DNA of 64,000 nt from Prorocentrum cordatum (GCA_963575745.1 CAUYUJ010000021.1:1-64000), one strand, 5' to 3'; counted from the first letter of the stretch, positions 1 through 41,345 are shown. Numbers and translations are program-made. Notes: generated by a model from the sequence alone, not told the origin.

Positions 1-229
1 GCAGAATCCTCGAAGGCCACCCGTCAGGAGAAAGCTTGAAGTGAGATGCTGATGTCTTGTCAGCGATGCTTCTCAGCTCGCTGCACGTCGCGTGTCTCGT
101 TTGGAGATAAAGCGAGCAGACGGGCCCCTGAGGCGGCTGCCCTCACCGCGAAGACTGGGTCACTTTTGCCTGCGGTGCTTCTCAGCCCGCAGTTGCTTTT
201 CTAGACGCGTCGGTGCTGCGGCGGTCGGA

Positions 230-520
230 AGTGTCTCGTTTGCAGACATCTCCAGTTTGGCTAGCAGTGTCTCGCTCCAGACAAAAAGTCATTGATACAA
301 GTGTCTCGTTTGGACCTGAATCCGTTGATAGCAGTGTCTCGTTTGGACCTGAATCCGTTGATAGAAGCGTTTCGTATGAAGATGCCCTTATCGAAGGCAG
401 TGCGTCGTTCCATACTGAATCCATTGAACACCGTGTCTTGGTTGGGGCTAGATCCATTCATAGCAGTGTCTCGGTTGGACCTGTGTCCACTGATAGCGCA
501 GTCTCGTTTGGAGATACTAA
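230..520 (+). repeat. Degenerate ~36-bp tandem repeat (AGCAGTGTCTCGTTTGGACCTGAATCCGTTGAT-like; reads as SVSFGPESVDS)
   Basis: GTGTCTCGTTTGGA-like cores recur at ~231, 301, 335, 446 and 501; ORF 213..707 shows 12-aa periodicity. Confidence 0.75.
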
Positions 521-969
521 TATCCAAAGCAGAGGGTCCTTCGAATCTACATCCATGGAGGGCAGTGCGCAGTTGGTACTTCTAGCAATGCGTAGTTGGT
601 ACTTCTGCTGTTTCCCCTACTTCTATTATTACTTGTACTGCTACCGTTACTACAGATCGTCCTACCGATACACCTCCCACTACCAGTGCCACTGGTGTCA
701 CTACTAATACTCCCACTACCACTGCTATTAAGACTACTGCTGATGTTGCTGTTGCTGCTGCTGCTCCTCTAGCTACTGCTAACGCATCTACTGTCATTGC
801 TACTACTACTGCTACTGGAGGTACTCCCGTTACCACTCGTACCGACACTTCTTACCTTTCCTGTGCTGATGTTACAAATGAAAACGCGACGGGATCCGTA
901 GCCACATGTTTGCTCGAGTTTCACCTGGCCGTCCAGCCGCGGCGGTGCCCCTCAGCCTGCCTTGTCACA

Positions 970-2040
970 ATGCCAGCACGCGGCAAGGCATCGCCCCCGC
1001 CACCCCCGGCCCCATGTGATGGCCCGTGGGAGATTATGCCGGATCCGCCCGCGCCGACTCCTCAGCCAGGTGTCGACGTGGTCTTTGAGCAGGCTCACCT
1101 CGAAGACATCCGCCGTACACCAGGGATGGGTGGCAAGACCGCCTGCCAGTGGCAGCGCGCGCTGCGCGCCGAGTGCATTGTCAACAATTTGTCGTTCAAA
1201 GACGTAACAAACGACCCGTCCTACGACTGGAAGCAACTGCTTCGGTCTGCCGCTCCGGGTTTCGCTGGGCGCATAATCGGGCAGGGCATCGTCCAGGTTC
1301 TCTTTCGCATCATCGAGACAGAGCGCGACCCTAACTACTCCAACACGGATGGCCACGGCAGGCACTTCTTCGAGTTCCGTCGCGCAGACGGTTCAGCCAT
1401 GCGCCTGCATTACCATAAGAACGGCCGACCCGATGAGCCCACCTATGTCGGTCCACCACGCGCCGTTGCTCAGCCTGCCGTGCCTGAGCCTGGCGCTGCT
1501 CAGCCTCACGTTCCTCGTGGCGGCGCTGCTCAGACTGCCGTGCCTGACGGTGGCGCTGCTCAGCCTGCCGAGACTGGCGGTGATGCCCCACTGCTCTTCA
1601 CACAGGAGCACCTGCAAGAGGCAGCCTGCTCGCGCCAGATTGTGGGCCGCGACGAAGCCAGCGCCGCTCTCCAATCGCTGTTGCACTACCACCATGGCGA
1701 GACTGCCCCAGGTGCAGTTGACATCACCGATGGCTCAGCATTTGACTGGCTTCGATGGGTGGCACATATCGAAGGTGCGCGCGACGTCATCCGCAATGGC
1801 GTCCACAGGGTCTACGCTGTCCGCTGGAATCCGCACTGGGATCCAGAGGCCGTCTTCTGCTACGGCAACAACACCTACAGCACACTGGTGCCCCGCAAAT
1901 CGCGCTACACAGGCTCGTGGAGCCACACGCGAATTGTGACTCACCGGAACGCCAATTGGGTGACCGAGCCGTTGCTATCTGCGGCCCCTGTGGCAGCTAC
2001 GCCGTGGCTGGTGTTGCGGGATCAAATAACCTGGGAGTGA
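970..2040 (+). CDS. Hypothetical protein with two diverged copies of one domain, probably TE-borne
   Basis: Open frame 910..2040 with first ATG at 970. YDWKQLLRS..GRIIGQGIVQVLF resembles FDWLRWVAH..DVIRNGVHRVYA; the two are separated by a GAAQP repeat linker. Confidence 0.55.
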   Translation: MPARGKASPPPPPAPCDGPWEIMPDPPAPTPQPGVDVVFEQAHLEDIRRTPGMGGKTACQWQRALRAECIVNNLSFKDVTNDPSYDWKQLLRSAAPGFAGRIIGQGIVQVLFRIIETERDPNYSNTDGHGRHFFEFRRADGSAMRLHYHKNGRPDEPTYVGPPRAVAQPAVPEPGAAQPHVPRGGAAQTAVPDGGAAQPAETGGDAPLLFTQEHLQEAACSRQIVGRDEASAALQSLLHYHHGETAPGAVDITDGSAFDWLRWVAHIEGARDVIRNGVHRVYAVRWNPHWDPEAVFCYGNNTYSTLVPRKSRYTGSWSHTRIVTHRNANWVTEPLLSAAPVAATPWLVLRDQITWE

Positions 2041-3003
2041 TCTCTGGCAAACGAGATGTGGTGCTTCTCAGCCTGCACTCATGTGACGCGCAATGCCGTG
2101 CCCTGCAATCGTGTGGTGCTTCTCAGCCTGCACTCGCGCGGTGCTTCTCAGCCTGCGCCTCCTCGATGCTAGCCCGAGCCTCAGCCTGCACTCGCGCGGT
2201 CGCCGTGCTTCTCAGCCTGCGACCTTCCGCGGTGCTTCTCAGCCTGCAGGTTGCGCCGGCTGTCCGCTTCACACGCCGCCCCTCAGCGCGCTCCTCTTCC
2301 GTTTGCGACATGTCTTCGAAGAGTTGGTTGGGAGCCGAGAAGGACAGACAGACAAAAATCAATCTAGCGCGGTCATCATCCCATCATCGTCCTCAATCAT
2401 CGCATCAACATCATCAAAGGTTTCGCCGAGCACTTGTCCGATGTGGCGGCGGCCATGCCCACGGCCGACCCACTGATTCCTCCTCCAAGGCATCCGCCGT
2501 ACTTGACTGTTACCACTACACCCACTGCAACTACACTTCACTGTTACCACTACTGCCATCCACCCACTCCAACTATACTTCACTTCACTGCTACCACTAC
2601 ACCCACTACAACTACACTTCACTCGTTCACTCCCGCCACATACAACTACTACTTCACTGTTACCACTACTACCATCAGTACTACTTTTACTGCTACCTTC
2701 CCGCCTAGTCGTAGTAGTACTCGTACGCCTCTCCGCCTCCTTCTACTCGCACGCCTCTCCTCCTCCTTTTTCTTCTCTCATCGACGTCAGAACCCTTGCC
2801 TCCTATGACGTCCTCCGCTGGCCTGGGTGGTCTACTCAGGTCGCGGAGGGGGATAGGAGGGGGGTCGTTGCCATGGCTGGTTCCCTCGAATTGACGACGG
2901 GGAGGGGGGGGTGCACCGTTCCCTCGGATGGGCACATCCCCCCCTCCAAAGGTCTCCGAGCCCTCCCTCTCCGTCCTTTCCCTTCTCCTTTCTACTCGTA
3001 GAG

Positions 3004-3005
3004 TT

Positions 3006-3097
<92 letters not shown>

Positions 3098-3106
3098 TGT
3101 AGTAGG

Positions 3107-3200
<94 letters not shown>

Positions 3201-3279
3201 AGTAGTAGGAGTAGTAGTAGTACTAGTAGTACTAGTAGTACTAGTAGTACTAGTAGTAGTAGTAGTAGTAGTAGTAGTC

Positions 3280-3330
<51 letters not shown>

Positions 3331-3339
3331 ATAGTAGTC

Positions 3340-3373
<34 letters not shown>

Positions 3374-3462
3374 AAGTAGTAGTAGTAGTAGTAGTAGCAG
3401 TAGTAGTTGTAGTAGTGGTAGTAGTAGTAGTAGTAGTCGTAGTAGTAGTAGTAGTAGTAGTA
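3004..3462. repeat. (TAG)n microsatellite
   Basis: Direct reading; degenerate (CTA)-rich tracts in the opposite orientation at ~620-830 and ~2510-2700. Confidence 0.97.
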
Positions 3463-3611
3463 GACCGAACAGCTTTTGCTGATAGCTTCCTAGTGGGATC
3501 AGAAGATAGCATATGGACTCATCATGTTCCTTTTTGCTTTTGATAGCTGTCTTTGGCTTACAGAGTTTTTGCCACGGTACTCTTCTGTGGTGAAAAGGCG
3601 CCAGTCTCGCG

Positions 3612-5680
3612 ATGGCATTTTCAGCGTCAGCTTCTCGTGGTGCTTCTCAGCCTGCGAACGAAAGCCGACAGGAACCCGCGGTCGCCACTGGCCGCTGTGC
3701 TTCTCAGCCTACGTCTTTCACGATCGCCTCCTTCAACTTCGGATTCGATCAGAATATGATGACTGGGAAAAGGGCTGGCACTCACTTCTCCAACTTTGCC
3801 CGCGTGTGCGCCACAATCGTCCAGGACGGTGATGCTGATCTGCTGTTTGCTTGCGAAGTCGGTGCGTCTCGGCAAGGCCTCAGCAAAGCGATGGCTGACG
3901 CGGCAGACATCCTGACGAAACCGTTTGGCGACAATGTCTGTTTCTCCGAGGTTGACAACTACCTATGCCTGTGGGGATTCGGCGGTGCTTCTCAGCCTGT
4001 CGATGTTTCCCTGCAGGGAGACGAGCATATCCATCACATCCCAATCGGGAGACATGTGGACGCGGCGATCACACGGTTCGATGTGCAAATAGAAGGCCAT
4101 GGTAGAATTCATTTGATTATTGCCAACTTGCACATCGCTTGCGGAGCGAAGCCGCCGTCGGTGCTGACCAAACAACGTGCGGTCAGGCTCCTCCGACTCT
4201 ACCTGGACAGCCTTCCAGGTCCGCAAGTGGACGCACCAGTTGTCCGCGTCATTGTCGGCGACAGCAACCTGACGTCCACGCAGACCCGCGTTGCTCTGCA
4301 GCGCCACACCGATGACGAGCAGTTGCGGGATGTGTTTGCGCATCCAAGTGATCGCCAAGGTGACGACGTGGCGGTCTCTGGGGCCACTGCGCAGTTCAAC
4401 CATCGCTGTTGGCGCATCGTACCAGGACCGTGGCATGCGCAACGAGTCCCACGATGCTGTTGCAATCACCATTACTCTCCCTGGTGCTTCTCAGCCTAAG
4501 GGATTGCCTTAGGAGCTTTCGTCGTCTCCGATACTGCTGCAGACAAAGCCGAAACTGAAGTCGACTGGGAACCCTTGCCAAGCCGTTCTCCTTCGCCAGA
4601 ATGGCAACCCATGCCAAGCCGCTCGCCTTCGCCGCAGCGCAACGAGCTTGACGATGAAGTTCATCAGCGCGCGCAGGAAGTGCATCGTGAGATGAGGGAG
4701 TTCTGGGAGCAGATGTACGAGGAGAGCTACGATCCCAAACTTCTCCATCATCTCAGCCGCCTGCTTTTCATGAATGGCAGACGCTGGTGCTCCTCAGCCT
4801 GGCGATGACTGCGACGCAGCCTATGCGTCGCAGGAAGAGACTGCTCGGGCCATTCAGGCTGTTCTGCGGATCCGCCACGACTTCCTCCGAAGCAAGAACA
4901 TCACGAACATGCGCCATGTCCTTGCTGAGGAGGAGCGCGGGGAACTTGTCAAACGTGCTCGAGAAGAGTACGACAGTTCTGCCTTCCAGGTTCAGCTGCA
5001 GCACCGAGATGCCGAGAAAGGGAAAGCGAAGGGAAAAAACGTCAGCACAGCAGGAACGCGGTGCTGATCAGCCTGCGAGCAAAGGCAAGGGAAAAGGCAA
5101 GGGCAAGGAACAAGGCATTGGCAGCCTCCGTAAGTTCATCAGAGAGCAAAAGCGCAAGCGATGGCGTCGGCATCTGCAACGCGTTTCCGGGACGAAGCAG
5201 ATCTGGGAGGTCCTCGCCTTTTCCGGCCGCTTCGACGTTGACATGCTCAAGCGAGCCTTGCACGTCGAGCCCAGTGATGCACCCGCAGAGCTCGCCGATC
5301 GCAACCAGGTCTCTCAGGAAGAGCGCCGCCGCCTCCATCGTGACAAGGCGGAGGCCCTTGCGCGCTACAACGAAGGTGGGCGGCTCTATCGCCATCGGCA
5401 AGAGGTGCAGCGTCGCGGTGCTAGTCAGCCTGCAGACGATGCCACTTTCACTCGCAGGCAATGGGATGCACTGCGGAAGTGGGAGAGCGGCGAGTTGCTC
5501 AAGAACCGCAATGCGGCGATTGTGGCGCTGGGACATGGTCGTCTGCGCACGAAAGAGGGTGATTACCTTGACATCGGCGGCAGCGCCGGAGGTGGATCCC
5601 GGCGCATCATCGATTCTTGGCAGCCTCCAGATTGGCGCGATTTCCTGGAAGACGAGCACGAGAGGCGATGGATCCAGGCC
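3612..5680 (+). pseudogene. Frameshifted gene with an N-terminal endonuclease/exonuclease/phosphatase (EEP)-like domain
   Basis: EEP-like motifs in order: TIASFNFG, DLLFACEVG, LIIANLH, VIVGDSN, then ESHDAV in the next frame. Protein-like sequence continues through frames 4291..4512, 4575..4808, 4774..5067 and 4787..5770. Confidence 0.6.
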
Positions 5681-5739
5681 TGCTTGCCCGCGGTGTTTCT
5701 GAGCCTGCGGTGTTGGAATGCTACTTGCAACAGTGATTC

Positions 5740-6460
5740 CCTGCACGGCCGCGCACAGCTTCTCTGCTGAGGAAGACGAGGAAGGGGAGGAAGCGAGGGG
5801 AGAGGGCGCGCAGGAGGAAGAGGAGGAGGACGGGCAAGAGGAGGGCGGAGGCCGACGAGGATGAGGTGGAAGAGGAGGGGGGGCTCTGTCTGCCAGTCTC
5901 TGTGGTGCTTCTAAGCCTGCAGGCTTGCCTCGCTTTCCTCTTTTGTTCGTCGCCAGACTGGCGCGATCTAGTTCCAAAAGTGCCGCGCTGCACGGCCGCC
6001 TTCAGCCTCTGTGCTGACAGGGCGAGGAGGAGGAGGAAGACAAGGGAGATGACGAGCAGGAGGAGGAGGAGGAGGGGCGAGAGGAGGGCGGAGGCGAAGG
6101 AGGATGAGGTGGAAGAGGAGGGGGGACTCTGTCTGCCAGTCTGTGCGGTGCTTCTAAGCCTGCAGGTTTGCTTCGTTTTCCGCTTCTGTTCGCCGCCGGA
6201 CCGGCGTGATCTAGTTCCAAAAGTGATGCGCTGCGCGACCGCGTTCAGCTTCTCTGCTGAAGAGGACGAGGAGGGGGCGGAAGAGAAGGGGGAGGACGAG
6301 CAGGAGGAGAAGGAGGAAAAGGAAGAGGAGGGCGGAGGTGGAGGAGGATGAGGTGGGAGAGGAGGGGGGCTCTGTCTCTGAGTCTCTGTGGTGCTTTTAA
6401 GCCGGCAGGGTTGCCGCGCTTGTTCGCTTGTGATCGCCGCCAGACTGGCGCGATCTTCGA
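5740..6460 (+). repeat. Three diverged ~240-bp tandem units (GAG-rich tract + GGGGCTCTGTCTG..GGTGCTTCTAAGCCTGCAGG)
   Basis: Unit cores at ~5880, ~6122 and ~6366, each followed by a CTGGCGCGATCT-like motif. Confidence 0.75.
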
Positions 6461-7464
6461 GAAGACGAACAGGAGGGGTGGTGGATCCAACTCTCCATGC
6501 CCGCTGCGCTTGTCAGCCTGCAGTATTGGAAGACTATTTCCAAAGGTAATGATCTGCTCGGCCGCGTTGGCACGGTGCCTGCGAGTGTCTGCGATGCTTC
6601 TTAGCTTGCAGCTTTTGCCCGTTTTCTCGCTCCGCACGCTGCGCTCATTTGTGCTCCTCGTGCGTGTCCGAAAAAAACACGCCGAAAGAACGCAGCCATC
6701 AAACGCACTATTCATTGATACATAAGCTCTACTTTAAACAATCATGGTCATCATCACATCATCCACTTCGAACGCTTCCGTGAGCACGCAGTGAACGTAG
6801 ACACCAGAGTCCCATTTGAAACTGCATTCGTTGATACCGAGTGCTTGCTTAAACTCACATCCGTCGATTGCAGACTTTTGATGCAAAAGTCTACAATGAG
6901 AGTCCGAGTTGAATATTAATGAAATCGCCATCTGAATCTAAACGATGGTGCACACATATATGCTTTTACACGTCGTTGTTAGGTTGCTTTGCTGGGATAA
7001 TAGTTCTAGAAGTCATTTTCTTTTTGGGGTCCTGTTTTTCTCGTGGATCGGGCAAACATCACGCATTCGAGTATGTATAAATAGATGCACATATTATCAT
7101 ACGCACCTCCCCGAGGGAGTAGAGCTCAGAGGCGATTAATGCGCACGCGTCCGCGATTTGTCTGGGCGTTTCGCTCGGGACATCCTCGAAATCTTGAAAA
7201 TCGGTGGCACCCCTCACGCATATCGCGACCTCAGGGTCCAAAACCACATGGGAATTCTTTACGCTTCGCGTATCCCCACCAACCCATCTCACAACAGCAA
7301 CTCATGCGAAGCATGGCGACAGTCGTGTTTTTCAGGCGTGTGTCCGTTTGGCCCCGCATATCTCCCCTGTTCCTCCTTCCTCCCGCCTCCTTGCACATCC
7401 TCCTTGTGGGGGGAGCGGAAGGAGGACGAGGCGGAGGAGGAGGGAAAGAAAGCGCTCCTCGTGA

Positions 7465-7875
7465 TTTGAGTCGTTTGGGGTTTCTCGTCCTGGTGTGAGT
7501 CGTTCGGGCCCTTCTTCCTGGTGTGAGTCGTTCGGGCTCTTCGTGGTGTGAGTCGTTCGGGCTCTTCGTCCTGTTGTGAGTCGTTCGGGCTTCTCGTGGT
7601 GTGAGTTGTTCGGGCCCCTCGTCCTGGTGTGAGTCGTTCGGGCCCCTCCTCCTGGTGTGACTCGTTCGGGCTCCTCGTGGTGTGAGTCGTTCGGGGCCCT
7701 CGTCGTGGTGTGAGGTTCGTTTCGGGCTCCTCGGGTGTGAGTCGTTCTCGGCGCGCCTCGTCCTGGTGTGAGTCGGTTTCTCGGTCGCCCCTCCTTGTGG
7801 TGTGAAGTCGTTTTCGGGCTCTCGTGTGTGAGTCGTTCGGGCCCGTCGCCTGGTGTGAGTCGTTCCGGGCTCTTC
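7465..7875. repeat. ~23-27-bp minisatellite GGTGTGAGTCGTTCGGGC...
   Basis: About 15 imperfect copies. Confidence 0.9.
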
Positions 7876-7877
7876 GT

Positions 7878-8045
7878 GGGGCCTTCTTGGGGGGCCTCTT
7901 GGAGCCTCTTGGGCCTCTTGGGGGCCTCTGCCTCGTGGGGGCCTCTTGGGGGCCTCCTGGGCCTCTGGGGGCCTCTTGGGGCCTCTTGGGGGCCTCTTGG
8001 GGGCCTCTTTGGGGCCATCGTTGGGGCCCTCTTGGGGCCTCTTGG
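7878..8045. repeat. 10-11-bp minisatellite GGGGGCCTCTT
   Basis: Direct reading; a related degenerate tract lies at ~58790-59090. Confidence 0.9.
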
Positions 8046-8214
8046 AGGCGTCTCGGTTTCTGAACGTTCCCGTCGTTTTTGTGTTGTCTTGAGACCGATC
8101 GTTTTGAAAGGCTTCGCTGAACATCGTTGCCCACAGCCGCGGTGGTTTGCCCAAGACCATCCTTTGATCTCCCTCCTTCAACCTCGGTGCCCCACCCTTT
8201 TTTTCGTTATCCCT

Positions 8215-8597: not shown

Positions 8598-8749
8598 GTC
8601 TCGGCTCGAGATTGCCCAGCACTCAGACCGCAGCCGCGACGCGAAGCGCCCCGCCTCGGAGTCAGACCCCCAGGCCTCGCGAGACCGGAGGGGCCCCAGC
8701 AGGGCCCTACTGATTCGCGTCACCTCTCCCCACCAGAGCGCCCGCAGCA

Positions 8750-11320
8750 ATGGCCCCCAGTAAGCCGGAGCGCCGTCGCTCTTCCAAGCAGCCCCCGAGC
8801 TCACGTCCTGCTGCTGAAGGGTCTCTCCTCCAACGCAAGCAGGACTGCATCGCAGCTTTCAAGCAAGCGGGGTCTGACCGCCCCACGGCCGCATACAACG
8901 GGCTTGCCGAGCTGAACGCGGACGAGCTCCAGGCAACGTACGACATGCACAAGACCAACACGAAGAAGCTCGGCAGTGCCTTGATCCGCATGTGCGCCGC
9001 CAACCAGATCAGCTACACGCTTGATCACCACCAGCGCAGCAAGCCTAAGCGCATTGGCGGTGACACATCACACCCACCAGCTGGGTCCGCACGTCTTCAG
9101 GCTGCGGACACCCAATTCATCGCCTTGGACCCGGCCTTTTGGAAGGTCCCTGTCCTCGCCGAACCCACATCTCCTGACGACGGCAAGACGTACAAGCCCA
9201 GTATCAGCCTCCACGACTACGAGAGCGGTGAACGGCTGCTGCAACACCACCTCGAGCAGGGTAAGCGTACCACGGGTCAGCTTGCGATTGCTGTCATGGG
9301 CCCAAAAAACGACAACTACGTCGGTACCGAGCTCGCCGTCCCCGTGCTGAAGCGTCACCCCAAGGCGCCCAAAGTGGTCCACACGCACGTCCCCGTGACC
9401 GTGTACCAGCTGGGCACCAAGGAAGTCGCCTGCACGGAAAAAGTAGCCGTCGCCACCATCGACCCTGCCGACCACGTATGCTGGATTCGGGCGACCATAC
9501 ATGAAACCGAGGCCATTGCCGCAGTCCCCTCCATGCATCAGGCCTTTGAGGACCAGTTCTCGGGAGGTGCCCCCGTAAACGGTGGTCCACGCGCCAAGGG
9601 TCCTTTCCGAGGAGACTCCGCTCCACAGGACAAGGCGCGCCAAAACCAAAAGCACAGGGAGTCCAAGAAAGACGCTCGCCGCCAGGAGCTCGATAGTCAG
9701 CTCCAGGACACCTTCAAGGCCCTCTTCCACGGCAACTTTAAAGCCGTCACCATCCTCGAACCCTGCAAAAGCCTAGGCAGGTTTGGATCGGGCGTCGGAA
9801 AGAGGTCCCTGGCTGCCACCTTCGGCGTCAGTCTTCAAGCGGTCGACAAGGTCTTGGCGGGATCAGGGCAACTCGGTGCCACCTACGACCTCAGCAACGT
9901 AGGTGCAGACGAGCCCACCGCAGACAAGTATCAGACCGTGTGGTTCCCTGAGGACCAGCCCATCACGATGGCAGATGCGTTCCAGAAGTCGGTGGATTTC
10001 AAGGCCCTGGGAGTCGTCAGGCACGGCAAGTCAGGCTTATTGGGGATCCGTGTTTCACGAGGGTCAGACGCCGCCAAGGCTGCTGCCGTCAGCATCCGCG
10101 GCTGCGAGGCCACCCTCGCCAAGACGCGCTACCGCATCACTGGCATTGCGGCACGCCACGCCACGCTGACCCAGCTCGCCAAGACTCTCACGGGCCCGTC
10201 CGTTAAATGGGACTGTGAGGTCTACCACACCGCCTGGGACCCAGCCACCGCGGCTCAGTTTGCCTTAGTGCGCGCCCACCGTCCCCCACTCACATATACG
10301 GTACAGGTCGCAGGGTGCCCCATCCCGTGGAGCATCACCGAGGCCCCGTTGGCTGAGGTGGTGCCGAAGCGGGACAACGTTACCATCGTCACGCCTACCA
10401 CCATCACAGAGCCTGTGACGCCGCCAGCCCGTGGTGGCGGCTTCAGCCCCGCCACGGGCGCACTCCTCACCAAAGCGGCCCAGAGCCCCTACCTCCACGA
10501 CCTCATGACTGCCACGCCCAAAGGCAAGGGCGTCGCACCGCTCCTGATCCCCAAGGAGGAGCCTTTAGCCAAGCGCCACCGATCCTCCAGCGGGAAACGC
10601 GACGCCACGCCGCACGCAAGATCACACGGCGCCCCAGGCCGCAGCTCCTCTGCACCCCCGCACGGCACGGACGGAGCCGCCGAGCAGACGGCCGTCCCAG
10701 GATCAGGTGGTCATGACCCTCGGCTTGGCACGGTGGCGGCTGAAGGTGGGGGCCACACCGAAGGGGACGCTGCCACAGCCGCCGAAGTACCAGGCGACGC
10801 TGACGACGTCGAGATCCTCTCATCAGGTGATGAATACAGCGTGGCTTCCCACGAACTCAACACCTTCGGCGAACGCTTCGCATCGGCCTCTAAACTGCCA
10901 GATGCCGCCACGACCCGCATCCAACACATGGAACAACAGCACGAGCTGCTAGCCAACACGGTGGATAACATGCAGGTTCAGCTTGCGGGCGTTCTCTCCT
11001 CCCAGGCCACACTCACGGAGCACGTCTCAGGGTTGGAACGGGGGCTTGCCACCGTCGTCACCCAGCAACAGACGGCAACCGCCGACGCCGCTGCACTGCG
11101 TGGCGACATCCAGGCCCTCCTCGGGCACCTCACGGGGGGCACCATCCACCTGCCACAAGTGGCCACTCTGGAAACTAAGAAGGAGGAAGCTGCATCAGTT
11201 GCCGATCCCGTGGCTGTCTGCGGGTGGATCGACCAGCCAGGCCAGGTCACCCCAGGGACGGGGCCCCCAGGGGCTGACAAAGGCAAAGACAAGGGTCGGG
11301 CCACCCAGGAACCCTATTGA
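8750..11320 (+). CDS. LINE ORF1 protein (856 aa) with C-terminal coiled coil
   Basis: Long ORF 5' of pol, intact in both copies; heptad-like TRIQHMEQQHELLANTVDNMQVQLAGVLSSQATLTEHVSGLE. Confidence 0.85.
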   Translation: MAPSKPERRRSSKQPPSSRPAAEGSLLQRKQDCIAAFKQAGSDRPTAAYNGLAELNADELQATYDMHKTNTKKLGSALIRMCAANQISYTLDHHQRSKPKRIGGDTSHPPAGSARLQAADTQFIALDPAFWKVPVLAEPTSPDDGKTYKPSISLHDYESGERLLQHHLEQGKRTTGQLAIAVMGPKNDNYVGTELAVPVLKRHPKAPKVVHTHVPVTVYQLGTKEVACTEKVAVATIDPADHVCWIRATIHETEAIAAVPSMHQAFEDQFSGGAPVNGGPRAKGPFRGDSAPQDKARQNQKHRESKKDARRQELDSQLQDTFKALFHGNFKAVTILEPCKSLGRFGSGVGKRSLAATFGVSLQAVDKVLAGSGQLGATYDLSNVGADEPTADKYQTVWFPEDQPITMADAFQKSVDFKALGVVRHGKSGLLGIRVSRGSDAAKAAAVSIRGCEATLAKTRYRITGIAARHATLTQLAKTLTGPSVKWDCEVYHTAWDPATAAQFALVRAHRPPLTYTVQVAGCPIPWSITEAPLAEVVPKRDNVTIVTPTTITEPVTPPARGGGFSPATGALLTKAAQSPYLHDLMTATPKGKGVAPLLIPKEEPLAKRHRSSSGKRDATPHARSHGAPGRSSSAPPHGTDGAAEQTAVPGSGGHDPRLGTVAAEGGGHTEGDAATAAEVPGDADDVEILSSGDEYSVASHELNTFGERFASASKLPDAATTRIQHMEQQHELLANTVDNMQVQLAGVLSSQATLTEHVSGLERGLATVVTQQQTATADAAALRGDIQALLGHLTGGTIHLPQVATLETKKEEAASVADPVAVCGWIDQPGQVTPGTGPPGADKGKDKGRATQEPY

Positions 11321-11479
11321 AGGTGCCTCAGAGAGCCTGCCTCAGCCCTCCGAGGAAGCGCCTTCAGAGGCATCTCTTCCCTCTTCGCGTCGTATCTCTT
11401 TCTTGTCATCTCATGTCTGTTTTGGCAGCAGCACGCGCAAGCTATCTGGTGTAGGGACACCCGTCATCTTGCAGGGGGC

Positions 11480-14400
11480 GTGATTGTTGCAATGTACATG
11501 AGCATGCAGGGGTATTTGAGGATGCGTGCTGACATGCAGCTTTTGGCTCATCGCTCGCGCCGCCCGCCAGGCCTCGCCATCATGTGGCGCCTTGCCTGCA
11601 GCCTGGCCCTCCCCTCGCTTGCTGGAGCACACCCGTCTTCAGGCGGTGCGCCCCAGCACGGAGGAGAGGTTTTCCTGCGACACGTTGAACGTGGGACTTT
11701 CTTCCACCTTAACGATGACAGCATCAACAAGTACGATCACTGCACCATTTTGGACCCGATCGTGAACAGCACCGCCGCCGCGGGTCCGTGCGGCAAAGGA
11801 TCGCTGGGCGCCATCGCAAGCGCATCCGCGCCCTCGTCAACTACGACACATGTTTCGCAGTCCACCCCCAGCGTGGCCTCGACCGTTGTGCAGCAGATCC
11901 TTGACGGGGACGTTGATACAGGCCAGGCACGCAGTGGCGGCTTCAGCCCCGCTGTCGTGCCCCGCTATAGCCCCACGGGTTTCACTACCCCCCTGTGTGC
12001 TAGGGGCGAACCCGAGGAGGACCCCGCTTTCTGGCACCTGATGATGATCCGCGCCCGGCTCATACCGTGCGCTGCGGCGTGGGCACCAGGTGAGGACCAC
12101 CAGGACGTGTTCTGGGCATGGCTCGAGGACTGCGTCCCGTACATCCTGGCGACGCTTCATCTGCCACAGTACGACCACCTTTTCCAGGAGGACTCTGAGG
12201 AGACAACCGACGCCCTGCGCCAGCGCACCGCGTTCGACATGTGCGAGGACATCTGGTATAGAGCGGGCCCCGACAGACAGCGCACAAACCGCAACCTCAC
12301 TCGTATCCAGGGCAGCCGCGAGTATTCCACCCGCTACTTTGGCCTCCTTCTGGAATACCAGGGTGCTCGTGCCCAGCTTGTCGGCCCTGAGGCTTTCACG
12401 GCACCTCTGCCGCCATACCTCTCACGGGCCCACGCCTTACTACCAAGAGACCTTCCTCCGCCCGACCAAGACGCCCTGGCGTACCTCGCGGATGCGATCC
12501 TGCACCGCCCGACAGACATGCAGCCGCTTGTCGAGGCGGAGCTCGCCGCGGCGCCGATGGAACCGCTTAACCCACCACCGCCAGCTGGCCTCGCCCAGCA
12601 CGCCACGGGTGATCAGGCCGCAGACGACCCCGTATCATGGCTGCTCCAGCACATCGCGGCCAGCGACATCAGCAACACACCCCTGGACTCGTTCCACGCG
12701 TCGGACGATATCAGCAACATATCCCTGGGCTCGGTCCATGTGGACGATAGCCAGGACGACATGGAAACCCAGGATCGTGACGGCACGACACCACCAGGCG
12801 ACACGGCCCAGCGTGACCGTGACAGCGAACCCCACTTAGGGCACACCCCGTCGCACAGCAGTCCGCCCAACAACTCGGCCCAGGCCGACCCCTGCGCACA
12901 GCTCAACGACGCTGAAGGCGCCACTGCCGCCGACGCGACAAGCCATGCCACTGCATCGCCAGCTCATACCAGCCTGCGCAGTGGCGGCGTCAGCCCCGCT
13001 GCAGCACTGGCTGGACCTGGACATCCCCAGACCGCAGGTGGCAGCACCACGCCCCGCACCCTTGTCTGCCGTGTTAACGTGACCGACTCCAATCCCAGCG
13101 TCATTGACCACTGGCAGGCCGACATCGACAACGACCCCATCGACGACGAGTACCCAGATGCCAGCGGTTCCCACGAGGCCCAGCACAGCGCAGCGGCATC
13201 ACGACACTGTGGCTGCCTCATTTGCCTCTTTGTGGCCACGTACGCCATCGTGATAGCAATGCCGTACAAGGACCAGATCGATGGGCACTTGCCGACACCG
13301 AGCCGAGACCCCAGCTACCGACAACGACGACGACGTGAAGCGGCGGCACCAGGCCCATCTGTGCTTACTACATCCCGACGCACAACGGCATACAACGTCA
13401 CGTCCGCATTATGGGCTACTCTCAAGTGGACCAGCGTCAAACTCAGAGATATCGTCTCGGGCGGAGCCAGCGCAGTCGGGGTCGGCCTCGGGGGTGTCCT
13501 GAAATGGGCCAGCGGCAAACTCGGGGCTATTGCCACTGGCGGAGTGGTGTGCGGTCTTCTACTCGTCGGCGCCAAACTCCTCGCTCAAGGAGCCGTCGGA
13601 CACGTAGGAGCCCGCATCTGTGCGCGGGCCCTGGACTCATCCACGGCCCAGTGGTGCCTCCGCTGTTGCCAACCGAGCAGGAGGCCGCGTGATGAGGCCA
13701 CATACACAATGCCGCGCACGCTTGCCGACGAACACGAGGACCAGCACGTGCACTCACTCCGACATCCGCTGCTACAGGAACACTACGCCGCAGCAGTTGC
13801 CGCCGCAGTCGCCGATGTCACCACCGCCACCACCGCCGCCATCGTCGAAGTCACTGCCGCCGTATCGCGAGCCTCGTCTGCCACACCACGATCGACCAGC
13901 CCGTCTCCGCGAGACGGCTCCAAGAGCGGCGCGGCCTACGGTAACCTACCGACTAATGAAGATGCCACAGCACACGGCAGCGACACCGAGGCAAGGGAAA
14001 CACGTGAGTACACCCACGTTAGCCCGTGGTCCATCTTCCGACATGCTGATGCTCGTGGTTCCTCTCCCGACACGGACACCCAACCACCACGACGGCGAGC
14101 ACGCTATGCATCACCCGCTCAGGCCCTGGTATGCCCTACACAACCCCCAAGCCACCGACGCGCAACTTACGCAACACTATCCAGCGCGACCCAGCGGTCC
14201 CCGTGCCGCCGACGAGCATCCTCAACGCCCTGTACCAAAACGGCTTTGCGCTTGGTAACAGTGGCGTGTCTACAGAGGACATCAAAGACGCTCTGCGACT
14301 CCACGACCATCCTCGATTCACCCATGATCTAACACTCCAAGCGCTGGGGCCGTGGACTGACATCATGCAGAGGCCCCCGAACCGCCTCACTTGGGTGCTG

Positions 14401-17400
14401 GAAGACTCGGGCGGGAACTCAGGCGAGACGATTTTCCCCTACCTCACGTGGGACCTCCGCCAACCCACCACCGACGCGCCCACTGTCTTCTGGCATGGGA
14501 CCCGCGGCGACCTTGCGGCCCGTCTCGCTGCCAGCGGAGGGCACCTCTTGCCAGGCCCCCGCCGTGAAGCGAAGGGTCGAACTGGCACCAACGTTGGCCG
14601 CACGTACGTGAGCGTGCACCCTTCGCTGGCCGCGTGGTACGCAATGCCGCCCCACCCGCCCTACAGCCTCGAAGACGACACCCTCGCGTGGGGACCCATC
14701 GCGCTCTGGATGTGCGAGGCCACCCAACCACCGCGCGGTGAGAACAGGCGCAACTTCGTGAAAGGGGAGGCCCACGGAGCGCGTCTCATTTACCCTCGGG
14801 TCCTGAGCCTCCTCATCCGCATGGACTGGTGCGCCCCCACAGAAGCTGCCTCCAGGTGCCGTGCCCTACCACATGCCTATGGCATGGGCGACTGTGCGCA
14901 CGCCCTCCACATCGCTGGCTACGATCATCCAGATCTCCGTGAGGCGGCTGAAGCTCACGACCAGGAAGCTAGCACCAGGCGCAGGCTAGACATCGCGGCA
15001 GCGTGGCCACCGCCGCAGGCACTATACTCGCCAGAGGCAGCGCGAGTATGGGCCAAACAGCACTACGACACTGAAGCAGCCACCAGGGACGACCCTAACC
15101 AGCCCCGCCCACGCGTCTCGCTTCGCAAGCTCCAGCTGGACCCGAAACCACTCATCGACCTGGTGTACACTGGCTTGCAAGCCGTCCCCGTGCGGGGGCA
15201 TCCCGACGCACGCGAGTCGCGCCCCAGCGGCTCCAGCCCTGGGGCCGCGTCTGGCCCACCGCGCACTTACCAGTCAGGTGCAGCCCTGGCGCACAGTCCA
15301 GACCGCTCATCGACGACATCAGGAGCCGACGACCGCCGTACGCCTTCCCTCATCAGCGCGGCCGCCGCCCTCGCCCGAGGCCACGCCCGCCCACGGCGAT
15401 CCGCCTCCCGTTCGTCACGGCAGAGTGGCGGAAACTCCACCTCGGACAACAGCGACATCGAGACGTGGGAGCACATCGAGACGGAAGAGGAGCCTACTGC
15501 CTACCACGTCCTCGCCTACCACGTCCGCGATGTGCGGGCCCGTGTCAATGCCCCTGGCATCGAGGTCTGGCTTGACCCTGGTGATCACCACGACGGCGCC
15601 TACTTACCGTGGGGGACGACCGTCATGGGCCATCGCGTCATCGACCCTGCGGTGGCGGGGCGTGACGGCTGGGTCATCCTCCACCACGACCACGGCGACA
15701 CCACTACCAAGCTCTGGGTACCGACTCAAGTCCACGTCAAAGCGGACGACACCTGGCGCACGGTCATGGTACCAGCGGACATGGGGCCCCAGTGGATCGA
15801 GCGCCATGCCGAGGACGCTCGCCTCCCCGCCGAGGTTGTCCGCACTACAGGCCAATCCTGGTTTGCCGACGTCTGGCCCTTGTGGGATCGCCCCCGACCT
15901 CACCCAGACGACCCAGGCACAAACGAGCATGCGCTCCCGCCCCTACCAGGACGCTGGTCCTGCCTACAGTGCCGATTCCAATGCTGTCAGTACTGTGCGG
16001 CTCGCCGCAACACGCAGCTCGGCACCTCGGGCCAACCAACGTGCCCAGACTGTGCCCGCAGCGGACTGCGTGCACTTATGGACTGGTCCACGGACTACTC
16101 TTGCAACAGTTGGACGTGTGCATACAGCACCGACAACAGGGACTCCGACACATGCTGCCTGTCCAGCAGGTGCCCCCATCCGCCCAGTCCACACAGCCTG
16201 CTCGACGTCCGTGCCACAGGGATGCCGCCGCACATCCTTGCCCGCCAATACGGCAACGCGCCAGCCCACCACGACCTCAAGGAACCCCCCCGAGCGCCTT
16301 CAGGCCCCGGGGGGGAGCCTCCACAACCAGGCCAAGCAGGTTACCAGGGTCAATGGTACTTTCCTCCGAGGCCGCGGCGCATCCCCAGACAGGGACTGCC
16401 TGACGGCACGAGGCGGCCACCTGGGTTCACAGGAACGGGGATGCCCGAAGAACCGTCCCCCGACCAACCTCTCTGGAGGGAAGGCTACGTGCTCTTCGGC
16501 CCCCACCAGGCCCTCAAGGAGGAATTCACCTTCAACAAGACGGTCCGCCGACCCTACTCCCTAGCCATCACCAACATGTACAGGGACCGTGTCACGGTCA
16601 GGACCGTCTGCGAGTCGATCGCCGAGCGCATCCACACTACCCGCACCCGCTGGCGAGATGTGGTACTGTACTGGGACGCCGAGGGTGGTCCTGGGCCTCA
16701 AGCTCTCGACTATGACATGCGACTCTGCGACGCCATGGTGAGCCGTGCCACGACCGAAGCCGAGCTAAACCACGACCGCAGCAACCGTGGTAGTTTCTGT
16801 CTCTATGGACCAGCGCACCAGCGAGCTGTAAACATCACGGCGATCTCCGAGCCGCAGAACATCGACTACACGGAGCATGTGCGGCGATACTCACCCGTAG
16901 GGGAGACCTACCCAGACCACGCCTTCGAGCACGTCTATCGGGGCTGGCAGCGGCCCGACGTGCCCACCATCCTCCCCGACACCCGCCCCCTCTCGAGAGC
17001 CGACCAGCAGCGATATCAACAGCACCAGCAGCGCATTCAGCAGCGCGACCAACGCGACGCAGGACAGCCGAGCACGCCACGCTACCGCTCCCCCGCGCGC
17101 GCCCCGACTGGCGGCAGCACGGCCTACGGCGGGGCTGCCGCCTATCACCGTGGCCCCATTGGCGCCAGGCCCGCGGCGGCTGGAGCAGCCGCCTCCAGTT
17201 ACGGCCATGCCCCTCACGCCAGGGTGCACCCAGCGGTCATCGGCTACCCGCGTGCACTCGTGCAGGCCCCCCCACGGGCCACTTCGCCCGTGCCAGGGTC
17301 CACGCGCGCCTGGGGCCATTACCCAGGCCGCCATGACGGCACCCCCAGCAACCAGCCCGCAGTGGTAACCCCTGCGGCTTCAGCCCAGGGGGCTGCAACA

Positions 17401-20400
17401 AACCGTGGCAGGACAGGGCGCCCTGAAGGATGGCGTGATGCGAACGTGCGTGCTTGGCAACCGCGCCAGCACACGCCCCCGCCAAACGTGGCTGCAGCGC
17501 TGCGCCCTGCCCAGGCAAAACCTGCCCCACCTGAGCGGGAGAGGCAGCCGCTCGTCCCGCTCGTCCTCACGTACACCCAGGCGCATCACAGCGCCTCCCC
17601 GCGGCACAGCGAGGGAAGCGCCCATCACGTCAGCCCCCGCCCCGACGCTGTCGACCCTGACCAGGCCACAGCCACGGCGGAGGGCGGCACAAGCGGCTCC
17701 CGCCAGCCCAGCCCATCACCCTGCGCGGCGCCGATCCGATCCCCGAGCAGGGCGGATTCCGAGCGCGCTAATGCCCAGGCGACCTCGCCACGCGACCGCC
17801 ACACGGGCGGGCGCGTCCCGCGCAGCAGGTCCTGCAGCCGCCACAGCTCACGCAAGGCCCCAGGGAGCTCCACGAGCTCGCCGCCTCGCGAGACTCAGGC
17901 TGATGGCCGAGCCCCCGAAGTGGTGCCACGCTTCGGTGCCAGCGCCATCGAACCTGGCCAGGTCGACCTCGAGCCGACGCCGTCCACGGACCACGAGCTG
18001 CCGCTGCCCACCCGCGTGGTCGTCCCCATCGACGAGGCGCCGACCTTCGACCCGTTCAAGAACAAGTACCGCGTCAAGGACCTTGCGGCGGGTTTCGGCG
18101 GCGGCTCACCGCTCTCACCTCAGAGTCGGGGCGGAGCCCCCGCCACCTCAGCCGCTGCCGCGGCAGCGGTGGCCCCGCGTGGAGTCAGCCCTGTCCGCAA
18201 CGCGGGCCTCACGGCAGCGGGCATGGACGAGGCCCAGCGCCAGGCCACCGACCGCGCTGCTCGAGCTGTTCCACCAGATGCTGCTCATCACGGTACTGAC
18301 GGGGCGGGCGCGCCGCCGCAGGACGGACCAGCGGTGTCGCGTGCGCAGTATATGCGCGTGCGTTGCGCCGCTGCCGCGCCGAGCCGCCGCCGCTGGTTCG
18401 CTTTTGCTTTTGTGTTCGGCAGGACGGATCGAGGAGTCGCCTCCCTCTCCCTCTGCTGCCGTCTCACCTCTCCTCCCCTCGTCCCCTATGGTACAGGAGT
18501 GAGGAGGATTTTTCGAGGCAGTTTTACTGATGTTTATGAACCCCCCCTGGCGCAGTGCCGACCATGTCTCGCATATACTTCTGGCCTGACGGCGGCTTCA
18601 GCCCCGGTCAAGCCAATCCACAGGAACGCCATGAGCTCCTACTGTGGCCAAGCCTTCTACCTGGGTGAGGGTCAGGCTGACCTCCACCGTGCGGGGCGTG
18701 CCAACCCCAGCTCCACCGATGGAGACGGACCAGGTCGCTCCATACACCTCGTCAGCCTAAACATCACCAGTCTCTCAGCGAACTGGCCAACCATCACCGC
18801 TCTTGGTGTCGACCACAACGCCGCAGTCATAGCACTGCAGGAGACCCGACATGCCAAGCCGACCAGACAAGCCATCGCTACCAGCGCCGCCAATCCACAC
18901 CACGGGGGATACCACGCCAGTCTGGGACCTGACCTGGATCTGGCGCGAGCCCAGCGCAGAGCTGCCCACGGCGGCACAGACCACACCGTCGTGGGCAACA
19001 CTGGCGCCTCGGGAGGGGTCGCCATCCTCTCTAAGGATGCCATTGTCGACTCCACTGTCGACGACACTGCGCCCTGTATCGTCACCCTCAAGGCCAAGAA
19101 AAGATGGCACGAGGCCTTCCTCCCGCTCTGCACTCAGCACCGCCGCAGGCGGCGACGAAACAACCACGGGCCCGCTGGGATCTACATAGCGAGCCTCTAC
19201 GGGGTAGCTGGAGGAGACAGCACAGACCTGTTTCGGCTCGCTGACTGCGCCGCCGCAAGGGTCGGCTCAGCCCCGTATTTCATCTGCATGGACGCCAACA
19301 CGAACATCGACGACAATCCACACCTGCTGCACATGATGCAGCACGGATGGTTTAACGTCGCTGAGGGCACACCAGACCACACCATGCACACATACGGCAA
19401 TATCCCTGACTGGGACCGCGTCACCAAGTGCCCCCGCACTTCGCGCATCGATTATATCATTGCCAACCAAGCGGCGCGATCCCTTGTCACCGACTTCTGC
19501 TATCTGCGCGACTTGCCAGCGAAGTCCCATGTTGGCCTGCAGGTCACGCTCGACCTCAGTCGCCTCGACCATACGGCCCGACGCCTTCTTGCCCCCACGC
19601 CCTACCCCCCTAACGATGGAGCTCACGAGGGCCACGAACTGCAGGCATTAGGGACCCTCATCGCAGGGCGATACCAGGACCGCATGGAGCAGGCCGACAC
19701 ACGCGACGATGTGGAACGCATGTTCGCCCTGGCTAACGAGGCCAGCCATGAGTACCATCTCACCCGTCTGCGCGACCTGCCACCTCCACCGCCAGACCAC
19801 CCAAAAAAGAAGCCCCCCACCATGCACGGGCTCACGCCCACGTTCGAGGAGCGACCCGTTGTCCCCCGCGCCTTTCCCACCTACGGAGCTTCCACGATAC
19901 ACATGAACCGCCTGCGCAAGCTCCATCGGCAACTTTGTGAGCTTCGCTTCATCGGACAGCACCATCATTTAGACTGCCGTGCCATCCCGCCGTACCTGGC
20001 GCAGCGCATCGACTGCACGTGGACCGCGGCCCGCCTCCTCTGTCACAAGCTGCGCCCCACGGTCCTCCTGGCCTTTCCCGAGGCCTGGACCCCTGACGAG
20101 CCAGCACCTCACGGAGAGCATCTTGACTGTCTGATCCAAAACCTCGACTCAGAGCTGGCGCGACGTGCAAACCGTGCCAAAGCTGAACGCATCAAGATAT
20201 GGGCTGAGGGCGTCCGCGAGCCAAGCGGGCGAGAGGCGGCCATATACGCACGGGCTGCTGACAACTCGCCCACGGCGTATCTCCGCACGCCTACCACTCC
20301 CGACGATACACAACTCCACTGCGACACCAACGCCTTCAAACCTGACAAAGCTAGCACGGACGATAGTGACGCCGACACCGAAGCTGGCGGCTTCAGCCCC

Positions 20401-24462: not shown

Positions 24463-25003
24463 TCTCCTCCTTTCTGCCTGCCCGTGAGTACGCGTGGCTC
24501 CGCGTCCACGGTGTCAGGGCGTGGGGGCGGGGGGTGCCCCGTCACTGCGCGCCGCTTTGCGGCCAAGCGCCCAACTGGCGGTCTGCCAAGCCGCCTAGCC
24601 ACGTGTCAGCACGTCGCCTTTCTTGTTGGGGCCTCTTTCTTTACGCGGTCTGACAGGTGAGATCATCATCGTCTGTCCGCCGTCTGTAGCGTCTGTCGCA
24701 CTGCGCCGGGGGAGGGGTTTTTTGTTGCCCGCCCTCGTATCTAAAGGCTGCACCGCCGCAAATAGTGTTTGCGAGTTGTCGCACCGCAGTGCGCCTCGCG
24801 GACGGACCCTGGTCCGCCTACTTGTCCGCTCTCTCTCTCTCTCTCTCTATAGTCTCGGCTCGAGAGTGCCCAGCACTCAGACCGCAGCCGCGACGCGAAG
24901 CGCCCCGCCTCGGAGTCAGACTCCCAGGCCTCGCGAGACCGGAGGGGTCCCAGCAGGACCCTACTGATTCGCGTCACCTCTCCCCACCAGAGCGCCCGCA
25001 GCA

Positions 25004-41236: not shown

Positions 41237-41266
<30 letters not shown>

Positions 41267-41281
41267 GTTTCTCTCTCTATT

Positions 41282-41345
<64 letters not shown>

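Follow-up and report, generated by a model that had tools for sequence, protein, structure and literature searches.

A bulged hairpin conserved as nucleic acid on the sense strand of orphan genes, a candidate RNA signal

Results

The stretch analysed here, 64,000 nucleotides (nt) of DNA from CAUYUJ010000021.1 (positions 1–64000; hereafter, the window), holds in its first 6.6 kb two orphan genes and, within and around them, many copies of a short hairpin, followed by two tandem copies of an element resembling a long interspersed nuclear element (LINE; Table 1). The hairpin, which encodes the peptide GASQPA where it lies in open reading frames (ORFs), is real, strand-specific and old, is common to many unrelated ORFs, and is under purifying selection at the levels of both nucleotides and pairing.

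The hairpin unit is 23 nt long, GYGG-U-GCU-UCUC-AGC-CUGC, and is present in 23–25 copies across positions 61–6611 and nowhere else in the 64 kb. At three or fewer mismatches, the 16-mer GTGCTTCTCAGCCTGC matched at 23 sites spanning 66–6609, every one of them on the + strand, compared with a mean of 1.03 (standard deviation [sd], 1.06) in dinucleotide shuffles of the window, none of 100 of which attained 23. At four or fewer mismatches, 25 copies were detected on the + strand and only two near-matches, of low complexity, on the − strand. The loose core GCTNNNNAGC exhibited no window-wide enrichment (30 vs. 30.6 expected), yet 22 of its 30 occurrences fall within 68–6605. The outer stem is 6 bp long, and a fixed G.U wobble lies among its first four pairs (GYGG/CUGC); above it come a bulged U, an inner stem of 3 bp (GCU/AGC) and a tetraloop of the type NNUC. 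At least five of the first six outer positions pair in 21 of the 25 window copies. ViennaRNA folds the copies as ((((((.(((....))))))))) at −9.8 to −13.8 kcal/mol (z, −1.95 to −2.83), and the complementary strand folds less well wherever G.U pairs occur. A covariance model was built from hairpins of this type, and its hits in the window are not independent evidence because they are members of the training set. A cmscan of positions 1–7000 against Rfam at E values up to 10 returned 10 matches, none at hairpins and none to the histone family.

The original prediction had placed such a hairpin more than 20 times in the first 6.6 kb, on the sense strand alone, in coding and non-coding parts and with compensatory changes. 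The window agrees with it on all these points, and the positions given are within 1–2 nt of those found here (61, 170, 1548, 2111, 2136, 3980, 4782, 5056, 5413, 5900, 6143 and 6589). It had also assigned the copies to one transposable element upstream of the LINE; the region was instead found to hold two orphan genes, of which the second is a copy with frameshifts, and a single transposable element was not demonstrated.

Covariation was assessed over 333 unique copies, taken as 40-mers, from the window and from the metagenome loci described below. The conserved block reads G-Y-G-G-U-G-C-U-(U)-(C)-U-C-A-G-C-C-U-G-C, and the sequence beyond it is free yet paired. Positions −3 to +15 are conserved at 75–98%, most of them at 87% or more, and the bulge, the inner stem and the last two loop bases are 87–98% invariant inside each of two hairpin families, the present one and that of the LINE. 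Pair −4/+16 is formed in 72% of copies compared with 39% after shuffling, and pair −5/+17 in 68% compared with 47% (0/2000 shuffles in each case). The former pair is made up of CG (96 copies), GC (55), AU (38), UA (20), GU (20) and UG (11), and pair −3/+15 switches from GC to CG 25 times; no pairing signal was detected from −7/+19 outward. In a 150-row alignment consisting of all 23 window copies and 127 random picks from 294 other unique copies, double-sided changes occupied 162 cells compared with 80.7 (sd, 6.7) after shuffling, a value attained by 0/500 shuffles, and the covariation score was 0.305 compared with 0.171 after shuffling and 0.05–0.12 in slid controls. Pairing of the outer positions thus exceeds chance. 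At orthologous sites, all four double changes at −4/+16 preserve the pair and slid control pairs mostly fail, though the numbers are small. Furthermore, pair −1/+13 is G.U in 281 of the 333 copies, despite its U occupying the third position of the proline codon, where a C would leave the amino acid unchanged and form the better pair. This indicates that the constraint is structural and strand-specific and that the wobble itself is constrained.

Inside ORFs, the hairpin is always read as GGT-GCT-TCT-CAG-CCT-GCN (e.g., 12 of 12 copies in one ORF of locus L061 and five of five in each of L060 and L055); copies past stop codons or in non-coding DNA lie in any reading frame. The recurring peptides GASQP/GAAQP and VLLSL, which the original prediction had ascribed to the hairpin, are, together with CFSA, indeed the three frames of one motif. 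In a search that started from the peptide, 133 of 138 GAxQPx peptides were encoded within three mismatches of the core, with TTTGT at the third positions in 101 of the 138. Codon use differs between the motif and the sequence outside it (GGT, 70% vs. 20%; GCT, 92% vs. 22%; CCT, 78% vs. 23%). The sixth codon uses all four alanine codons, its third base being a covarying stem position, and the third residue varies among S, A, P, T, F, L, G and D, whereas its third base is T in 98%. If GASQPA were selected as a flexible linker or processing site, with the nucleotide likeness secondary, its presence in predicted disordered linkers and the single frame of in-ORF copies would be explained, but not the fixation of synonymous positions contrary to local codon usage, nor a third residue that is free while its third base is not, nor the retention of both sequence and pairing by non-coding copies in other frames. 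The covariation, the kept G.U pair and bulged U, and the fixed synonymous positions thus point to a strand-specific nucleic-acid structure and not to a peptide motif, and the peptide reading is essentially excluded.

Relatives were ascertained by scanning metagenome contigs for the exact 19-mer GYGGTGCTTCTCAGCCTGC, which matched at least 128 stretches, whereas rough arithmetic, as distinct from a control run, would put chance at a handful; 124 loci were kept. Their contigs are short, and many copies are related by descent. Among relaxed copies in the 124 loci, 355 lie on the majority strand of their contig and four on the minority strand. Two of these four are not hairpins and the other two lie at the far end of one contig, in what resembles a convergent gene pair. 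Hairpin orientation is thus uniform and not random relative to ORFs; as outer pairing also exceeds chance, neither of the two outcomes that would have refuted the original prediction was observed. At least two copies occur in 78 of the 124 loci, and L061 contains 17 copies at two or fewer mismatches (21 at three or fewer) within 6.2 kb. As for the genome-wide cis-code that had been suggested, the GASQPA type is lineage-wide: at least 128 metagenome stretches and 52 ORF clusters contain it. A handful of the loci, long, rich in GC and with one copy each, resemble chance bacterial matches. Viral contigs gave seven single exact matches and were rejected as carriers; the matches were ascribed to chance because the sole viral locus where two near copies occur, L006, is a coiled-coil gene of a phage, read from the other strand.

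Of 239 hairpins that blastn could align with relatives, 225 form hairpins there too. None of the remaining 14 shows a clean unit-sized indel, most being cases of point decay and two lying in gapped, poorly aligned stretches. Over 52 hairpin-by-pair instances at 65–92% identity, identity was 0.95 in the core compared with 0.73 in the flanks, and third codon positions were identical at 0.915 inside the hairpin compared with 0.70 outside it. The sites that persist at 30–45% protein identity include the N-terminal one, those in a loop and at the end of the nuclease domain, and, in the ORFa linker, the last repeat; others are confined to particular lineages. Tandem duplication, in units of 30, 57 and 243 nt, adds to the local number of copies.

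Hairpins recur at particular places in their genes. In several families, they lie 4–11 codons past the AUG, and others lie in inter-domain linkers or in segments predicted to be disordered. In 10 of 38 qualifying ORFs, the start of a hairpin is no more than 40 nt past the stop codon, compared with 3.1 at random (sd, 1.7; maximum, 10 in 1000 draws). All 10 of these ORFs, which represent about six independent families, end in TGA, as do 20 of the 38 overall. Post-stop arrays begin 10–30 nt past the stop, with a spacing of about 15 nt after TGA recurring; ORFa in the window has TGA, 15 nt and then five hairpins. Post-stop hairpins are out of the ORF frame, for example in ORFa and in L061, making a readthrough product unlikely.

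Concerning the carrier genes, ORFa is intact and has 30 database homologues, of which P0042 is 98% identical. In its model, two folded domains are joined by a disordered linker (nt 1458–1570) of 30-nt hairpin repeats (GGAAQPA), and residues 165–207 have a predicted local distance difference test score (pLDDT) below 50. The second gene has intact relatives at L020:3341-6058 and L054:143-2860, and contigs of four DNA runs differ from the window copy by +2, +16, +2 and −1 nt. In its hairpin at 4479–4501, CUGC is mutated to CUAA, thereby creating a TAA stop. The N-terminal domain gave no sequence match in Pfam or PDB. An AlphaFold2 model of this domain in homologue P0003 (alignment A2; pLDDT, 77.8) gave TDP2, a protein of the endonuclease/exonuclease/phosphatase (EEP) family, DNase I and nocturnin as top Foldseek matches in PDB (E, 4e-10 to 2e-8; probability, 1.00); as modelled, the carrier protein at 3612–4499 has an EEP fold. 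Kinship of this domain with the LINE endonuclease was rejected, hhalign detecting none. Contigs of three DNA runs join 3670 to 3942 and 4014 to 4403, and depth peaks in hairpin-containing bins; these joints may mark deletion derivatives retaining hairpin segments or, just as well, paralogues so diverged that only the surroundings of hairpins align.

In the metagenome loci, 108 ORFs with in-frame hairpins formed 52 clusters, the TDP2/EEP-fold family being the commonest carrier (32 of the 108). Six of the first 46 of these ORFs matched Pfam (PIF1 and AAA_19 below the cut-off, WW above it, PDZ just below it, RapZ_C, ASCH and one DUF), and none of the further 62 did, indicating that the carriers are overwhelmingly orphan genes. 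Two hairpin-bearing ORFs, L016:2018-3955 (646 amino acids [aa]) and L060:33-3662(−) (1210 aa), account for weak PIF1/AAA_19 helicase matches (E, 2.6e-4, below the cut-off); the helicase part is a separate ORF in L016 and is fused to the upstream ORF in L060. Stretches resembling relics of a spliced leader number eight on the hairpin strand and three on the opposite strand of the loci, where we would expect fewer than one by chance. A spliced leader that serves as a retrogene tag is described for dinoflagellates (PMC6050394). DNA runs show multi-copy depth. Given these relics and this depth, the carriers are probably multi-copy genes that arose by retroposition in an organism of the dinoflagellate type. 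A role of the hairpin AG as a spliced-leader acceptor was rejected, since none of the eight same-strand relics precedes CCUGC.

The neighbouring LINE carries a sister hairpin. In Pfam scans of its sub-regions, Exo_endo_phos matched at an E value of 1.5e-7, and RVT_1 (0.012) and RNase_H (0.045) fell below the cut-off; scans of whole ORFs at 1e-3 gave no match. Its long ORFs encode 868, 1003 and 3470 aa, ORF1 and ORF2 being without recognisable domains. A 140-nt A-rich run (36503–36642; 83% matches) lies in the second copy where the long ORF breaks (27575–36397, then 36545–40870), and may be an insertion or retrocopy junction. The core of the sister hairpin, G-C-GGC-UUCA-GCC-C, occurs in 22 + strand copies at two or fewer mismatches; the outer stems vary freely and are perfectly complementary, and in one copy the inner stem is compensated (GCC/GGC). 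These hairpins use two reading frames and, by eye, precede the endonuclease, reverse transcriptase (RT) and RNase H regions. The original prediction had described the two types as alike in geometry and different in sequence. The geometry is indeed the same, with an identical dot-bracket topology (outer stem, single pyrimidine bulge on the 5′ side, 3 bp, tetraloop). As to sequence, the string GCUUC(UC)AGCC is common to both, yet the covariance model of the GASQPA family scored only 13.4 bits (E, 0.79) on the best LINE hairpin. The further claim that a shared factor reads shape rather than sequence was not supported because the apical sequence of each family is nearly invariant; a pair of specific readers, or a single family of readers having two specificities, would be a better fit than one reader of shape. 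A structure-only descriptor search of the window revealed no third family: the excess of its hits (41 on the + strand, seven on the − strand, about five under a Markov null) consists of the two families. Searching all GASQPA loci with the window LINE ORFs by tblastn gave no match.

Other repeats are present in the window. Between the first two hairpins and ORFa (230–540), a motif of the GTGTCTCGTTTGGA type recurs about 10 times, in units of 33 nt. Directly 3′ of the hairpin region, an ORF-like region (7231–8214, − strand; 7455–8045) of 28/53/81-nt tandem repeats encodes peptide repeats rich in T, H, R, P and E and is without hairpin copies. Satellite arrays of 152 bp at 41618–42906 (8.5 copies) and 44013–45197 (about 6 copies), with 96–98% matches, have mutually reverse-complementary consensus units and thus form inverted arrays around about 1.1 kb; they are bordered by long (CT)n/(GA)n tracts (41237–41585 and 45269–46193). 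A dense array of the 14-nt unit CGGTCGCATTGACA, about 51 copies in 81/162-nt higher-order repeats, occupies 53999–54705. Trinucleotide arrays consist of (GTA)n at 2998–3463 (about 0.47 kb), (CTA)n at 59143–62744 (about 3.6 kb) and (AGT)n at 63387–63872 (about 0.5 kb), and GC content drops to 0.42–0.46 over the last 6 kb.

Table 1 Hairpin copies, genes and LINE copies in the window
Feature	Position (nt)	Strand	Basis or remark
Hairpin copy	61-83	+	A-U closing pair variant; 6/6 outer pairs Watson-Crick; covariance model, 30.9 bits
Hairpin copy	170-192	+	−13.8 kcal/mol; covariance model match
Decayed spliced-leader-like stretch, 5′ of ORFa	896-918	+	Weak: 9-nt exact match and partial similarity; 1 vs. 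0.68 expected
Hairpin copy, GCC/CCUC variant	940-962	+	9 nt upstream of ORFa AUG; covariance model match
ORFa, orphan protein, TGA stop	970-2040	+	ORF; two modelled folded domains, linker of 30-nt hairpin repeats
Two degenerate hairpin repeats, ORFa linker	1458-1510	+	Four mismatches each; 16.2 bits for 1485-1516
Hairpin copy, C bulge, GCUC loop	1518-1540	+	GTGCTTCTCAGCCTGC match, outer pairing
Hairpin copy, C bulge, GCUC loop	1548-1570	+	Linker copy retained in ORFa homologues at 31-34% identity; covariance model match
Five exact-core hairpins (2056-2078, 2111-2133, 2136-2158, 2200-2222, 2227-2249)	2056-2249	+	15 nt past ORFa TGA; mixed reading frames
Frameshifted copy of ~900-aa orphan gene (TDP2/EEP-fold N-terminal domain as modelled; C-terminal region, unknown fold)	3612-5770	+	Homologues, model, Foldseek
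Hairpin copy, peptide RGASQPA	3635-3657	+	Begins 20 nt past end of EEP-gene AUG codon; covariance model match
Hairpin copy, weakened outer stem	3692-3714	+	GTGCTTCTCAGCCTGC match
Hairpin copy in EEP-domain loop (GFGGASQPV)	3980-4002	+	Conserved in most homologues
Hairpin copy, end of EEP domain	4479-4501	+	Most widely conserved site of EEP family; here out of frame
Hairpin copy, CCUC loop	4782-4804	+	GTGCTTCTCAGCCTGC match, outer pairing
Hairpin copy, GAUC loop	5056-5078	+	GTGCTTCTCAGCCTGC match, outer pairing
Hairpin copy, AGUC loop	5413-5435	+	Orthologous to RGASQPA site of L020, L054, L057
Hairpin copy, GUU/GAG variant	5688-5710	+	At expected EEP-gene end; covariance model match
Three 243-bp tandem repeats, one hairpin each (5900-5922, 6143-6165, 6386-6408)	5721-6456	+	Tandem-repeat finding and GTGCTTCTCAGCCTGC matches
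Hairpin copy, C bulge, UGUC loop	6501-6523	+	GTGCTTCTCAGCCTGC match, outer pairing
Last hairpin copy, A-U closing pair, UCUU loop	6589-6611	+	Covariance model match
Two tandem copies of ~16.25-kb LINE-like element	8714-24462, 24968-40870	+	Repeat analysis; Pfam sub-region matches
LINE hairpin 16-mer starts, first copy	10437, 11937, 12984, 15227, 16294, 17374, 18592, 20387, 22639, 23938, 24055	+	
LINE hairpin 16-mer starts, second copy	26691, 28191, 29238, 30383, 31497, 33644, 34862, 36795, 39047, 40346, 40463	+	

Discussion

As the hairpin is conserved as nucleic acid and not as protein, it would most likely be a signal at the RNA level, so far undescribed, with a binding factor dedicated to reading it. 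Specifically, it may be an RNA tag bound by a sequence-specific factor on the sense transcripts of orphan multi-copy genes, a reading to which we give an even chance. In the scenario that we propose from the sequence comparisons, a cis-acting stem-loop would act on the sense-strand transcript and form part of the mRNAs of orphan genes that exist in many copies in a marine lineage, probably one of dinoflagellates. It would be placed soon past the AUG, in disordered linkers between domains and in arrays past the stop codon, and in linkers only the frame giving the harmless peptide G-A-S-Q-P-A would be tolerated. The hairpin would be the binding site of a sequence-specific RNA-binding factor, for which many hairpins per transcript may provide avidity. 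By serving as a self-recognition tag, it may recruit selfish transcripts into a ribonucleoprotein (RNP) for retroposition or packaging, the LINE having a private version of the same design. We prefer this role for the tag because the carriers bear the marks of retrocopies and the adjoining LINE has its private version, but we regard it as doubtful. Equally tentative is a broader proposal, that genomes of the dinoflagellate type use private hairpin alphabets, in which each selfish RNA lineage, such as the orphan-gene set or the LINE, repeats its own 23-nt bulged stem-loop in its transcripts, in frame within linkers and as arrays past the stop, and a cognate protein picks its own RNA from among the spliced-leader mRNAs that fill the cell, for reverse transcription or packaging; if true, such a private code would explain which mRNAs turn into multi-copy retrogenes.

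Several points weigh against an RNA tag of this kind. The shuffle statistics overstate independence, because an exact 19-mer served to collect the loci and common descent links many of the copies, and sequence homogenisation through gene conversion could mimic purifying selection. The hairpin is only modestly stable (−10 to −14 kcal/mol; z, about −2 to −2.8), and G.T pairs form in single-stranded DNA too. ORFa has no recognisable fold: its model had no Foldseek match at an E value of 0.001 or better, and the best VIA-align Z score, 5.3, is uninformative. No RVT Pfam match was detected in the 108 carrier ORFs, on contigs that are short and with profiles that barely detect the RT of the window LINE itself (E, 0.012), leaving the retroposition role without a detected cognate enzyme in the GASQPA loci. 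Finally, the assignment of the carriers to dinoflagellates depends on a motif that we take to be the dinoflagellate spliced leader.

Within an RNA-level explanation, the main alternative is translational control, in which the hairpin would aid start recognition past the AUG, pause ribosomes at domain boundaries for co-translational folding, or affect termination or readthrough 15 nt past UGA. The copies 4–11 codons past the AUG in several families, the location of both hairpin families at domain borders and the stop-proximal copies, all of them behind TGA, agree with it. However, pausing requires stability and not an invariant bulge, loop and wobble, 3′-untranslated region (UTR) arrays of up to five copies would be left unexplained, the downstream copies are out of frame for readthrough, and the 10 stop-proximal cases collapse to about six families; we thus consider it decidedly unlikely.

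At the DNA level, the hairpin could be a selfish mini-palindrome resembling the Rickettsia palindromic element (RPE), i.e., a short self-copying module without function for its carrier that survives where GASQPA is harmless. One core in 52 clusters of unrelated ORFs, copies in linkers and termini in the tolerated frame only, some lineage-specific gains at non-homologous positions of one loop, and local tandem amplification would all be expected of such a module. Nevertheless, we think it unlikely, since not one of the 14 non-kept hairpins shows clean unit-sized presence or absence, the orientation of 355 to 4 holds even in non-coding DNA despite two open antisense frames, conservation of the hairpins far exceeds that of their flanks, synonymous sites included, and the outer stems differ among copies yet remain complementary. 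Alternatively, an extruded hairpin or 19-bp duplex could be the target of a nuclease or recombinase, such as the TDP2/EEP-fold protein, and act as a joint for module shuffling. The commonest carrier is a gene of nuclease fold, modules 3′ of the hairpin differ among family members, and P0013 passes into the ORFa-type GAAQPA repeat right at a hairpin. Homology breakpoints are also slightly enriched near hairpins (0.078 vs. 0.054 within 15 nt; attained by 24 of 500 random draws), but this enrichment is marginal and biased, because a conserved hairpin extends alignments. Furthermore, orientation follows the genes, the conserved G.U wobble and Y-G pair worsen the fold of the opposite strand, and many hairpin genes are without a nuclease, so that a DNA target site seems very improbable.

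Whatever reads it, the hairpin is a sharply defined, very abundant and constrained element of RNA type with a clear positional grammar. It provides a direct bait for a reader protein, marks a large set of 'dark' multi-copy genes, and explains the recurrent GASQPA/GAAQPA peptide in predicted proteomes as a by-product of nucleic acid; together with the private version of the LINE, it makes recognition of selfish RNAs in such genomes testable. A review presents gene control in dinoflagellates as being, in the prevailing view, largely post-transcriptional (PMC12787238), and the passages of that article on the subject name hardly any cis-acting RNA element. Full-text look-ups for the peptide GASQPA and the motif GGTGCTTCTCAGCC found no paper, and look-ups by topic gave no description of the hairpin.

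Among known systems, the RPEs of Rickettsia are in-frame coding palindromes of 100–150 nt, found in unrelated genes at tolerated surface or linker positions. The present hairpin is likewise a module in frame in unrelated genes (108 ORFs, 52 clusters) whose recurring peptide is a by-product of the nucleotide sequence. However, it is only 23 nt long, is strictly sense-oriented, is more conserved than its flanks, has covarying outer pairs, and also occupies patterned start-proximal and stop-proximal positions. Compared with both RPEs and repetitive extragenic palindromes (REPs), it shows no unit-sized gain or loss (225 of 239 kept) and does not occur in both orientations, the two real antisense copies belonging to one convergent locus.

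Hairpins of mRNA regulons include the histone 3′ stem-loop bound by SLBP, the iron-responsive element (IRE) bound by IRP, the Smaug recognition elements (SREs) and the constitutive decay element (CDE) of Roquin. The hairpin described here resembles those of the IRE, SRE and CDE kind in having a conserved apical part and a compensated lower stem, in its bulge, as in the IRE, and in being common to a set of mRNAs, and it resembles the histone loop in closing with U-A and in having U at loop positions 1 and 3. Unlike regulon hairpins, it reaches 17–21 copies per transcript, lies mostly in coding sequence and in one frame, and is carried by orphan multi-copy genes. Histone3 is an uninterrupted 6-bp stem present as a single 3′-UTR copy, whereas here there is a bulge, and 25 copies lie in 6.6 kb, mostly in non-histone ORFs.

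Single-stranded RNA viruses have coat-protein operator hairpins of the MS2/PP7 type and dispersed packaging signals. In common with these, the present hairpin has a stem, a single bulge on the 5′ side, a short upper stem and a tetraloop, its copies are dispersed in the coding sense strand, and each element has its own sequence version. It differs in its pyrimidine bulge, placed 3 bp below the loop, in that neither a capsid nor a coat gene is in view, and in its carriers, which are a LINE and cellular-type genes tagged by a spliced leader. 'Stringent' LINEs have a 3′ stem-loop recognised by their own RT. Here too, an element-specific hairpin would mark RNA for retrotransposition, and a LINE with a private hairpin family adjoins; however, the hairpins are spread over all ORFs instead of standing once at the 3′ end, and the GASQPA carriers are without a detectable RT. 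Within the dinoflagellate lineage, the introner elements of Amoebophrya are, as described in passages of PMC7789003, introns with terminal inverted repeats of 8–20 nt and direct repeats of 3–5 nt that are removed from the mRNA. They share with the present hairpin the features of a repeat family of short inverted repeats that invades genes and forms RNA hairpins (PMC7789003), whereas here the whole element is 23 nt long, lies in frame and is counted within the ORF.

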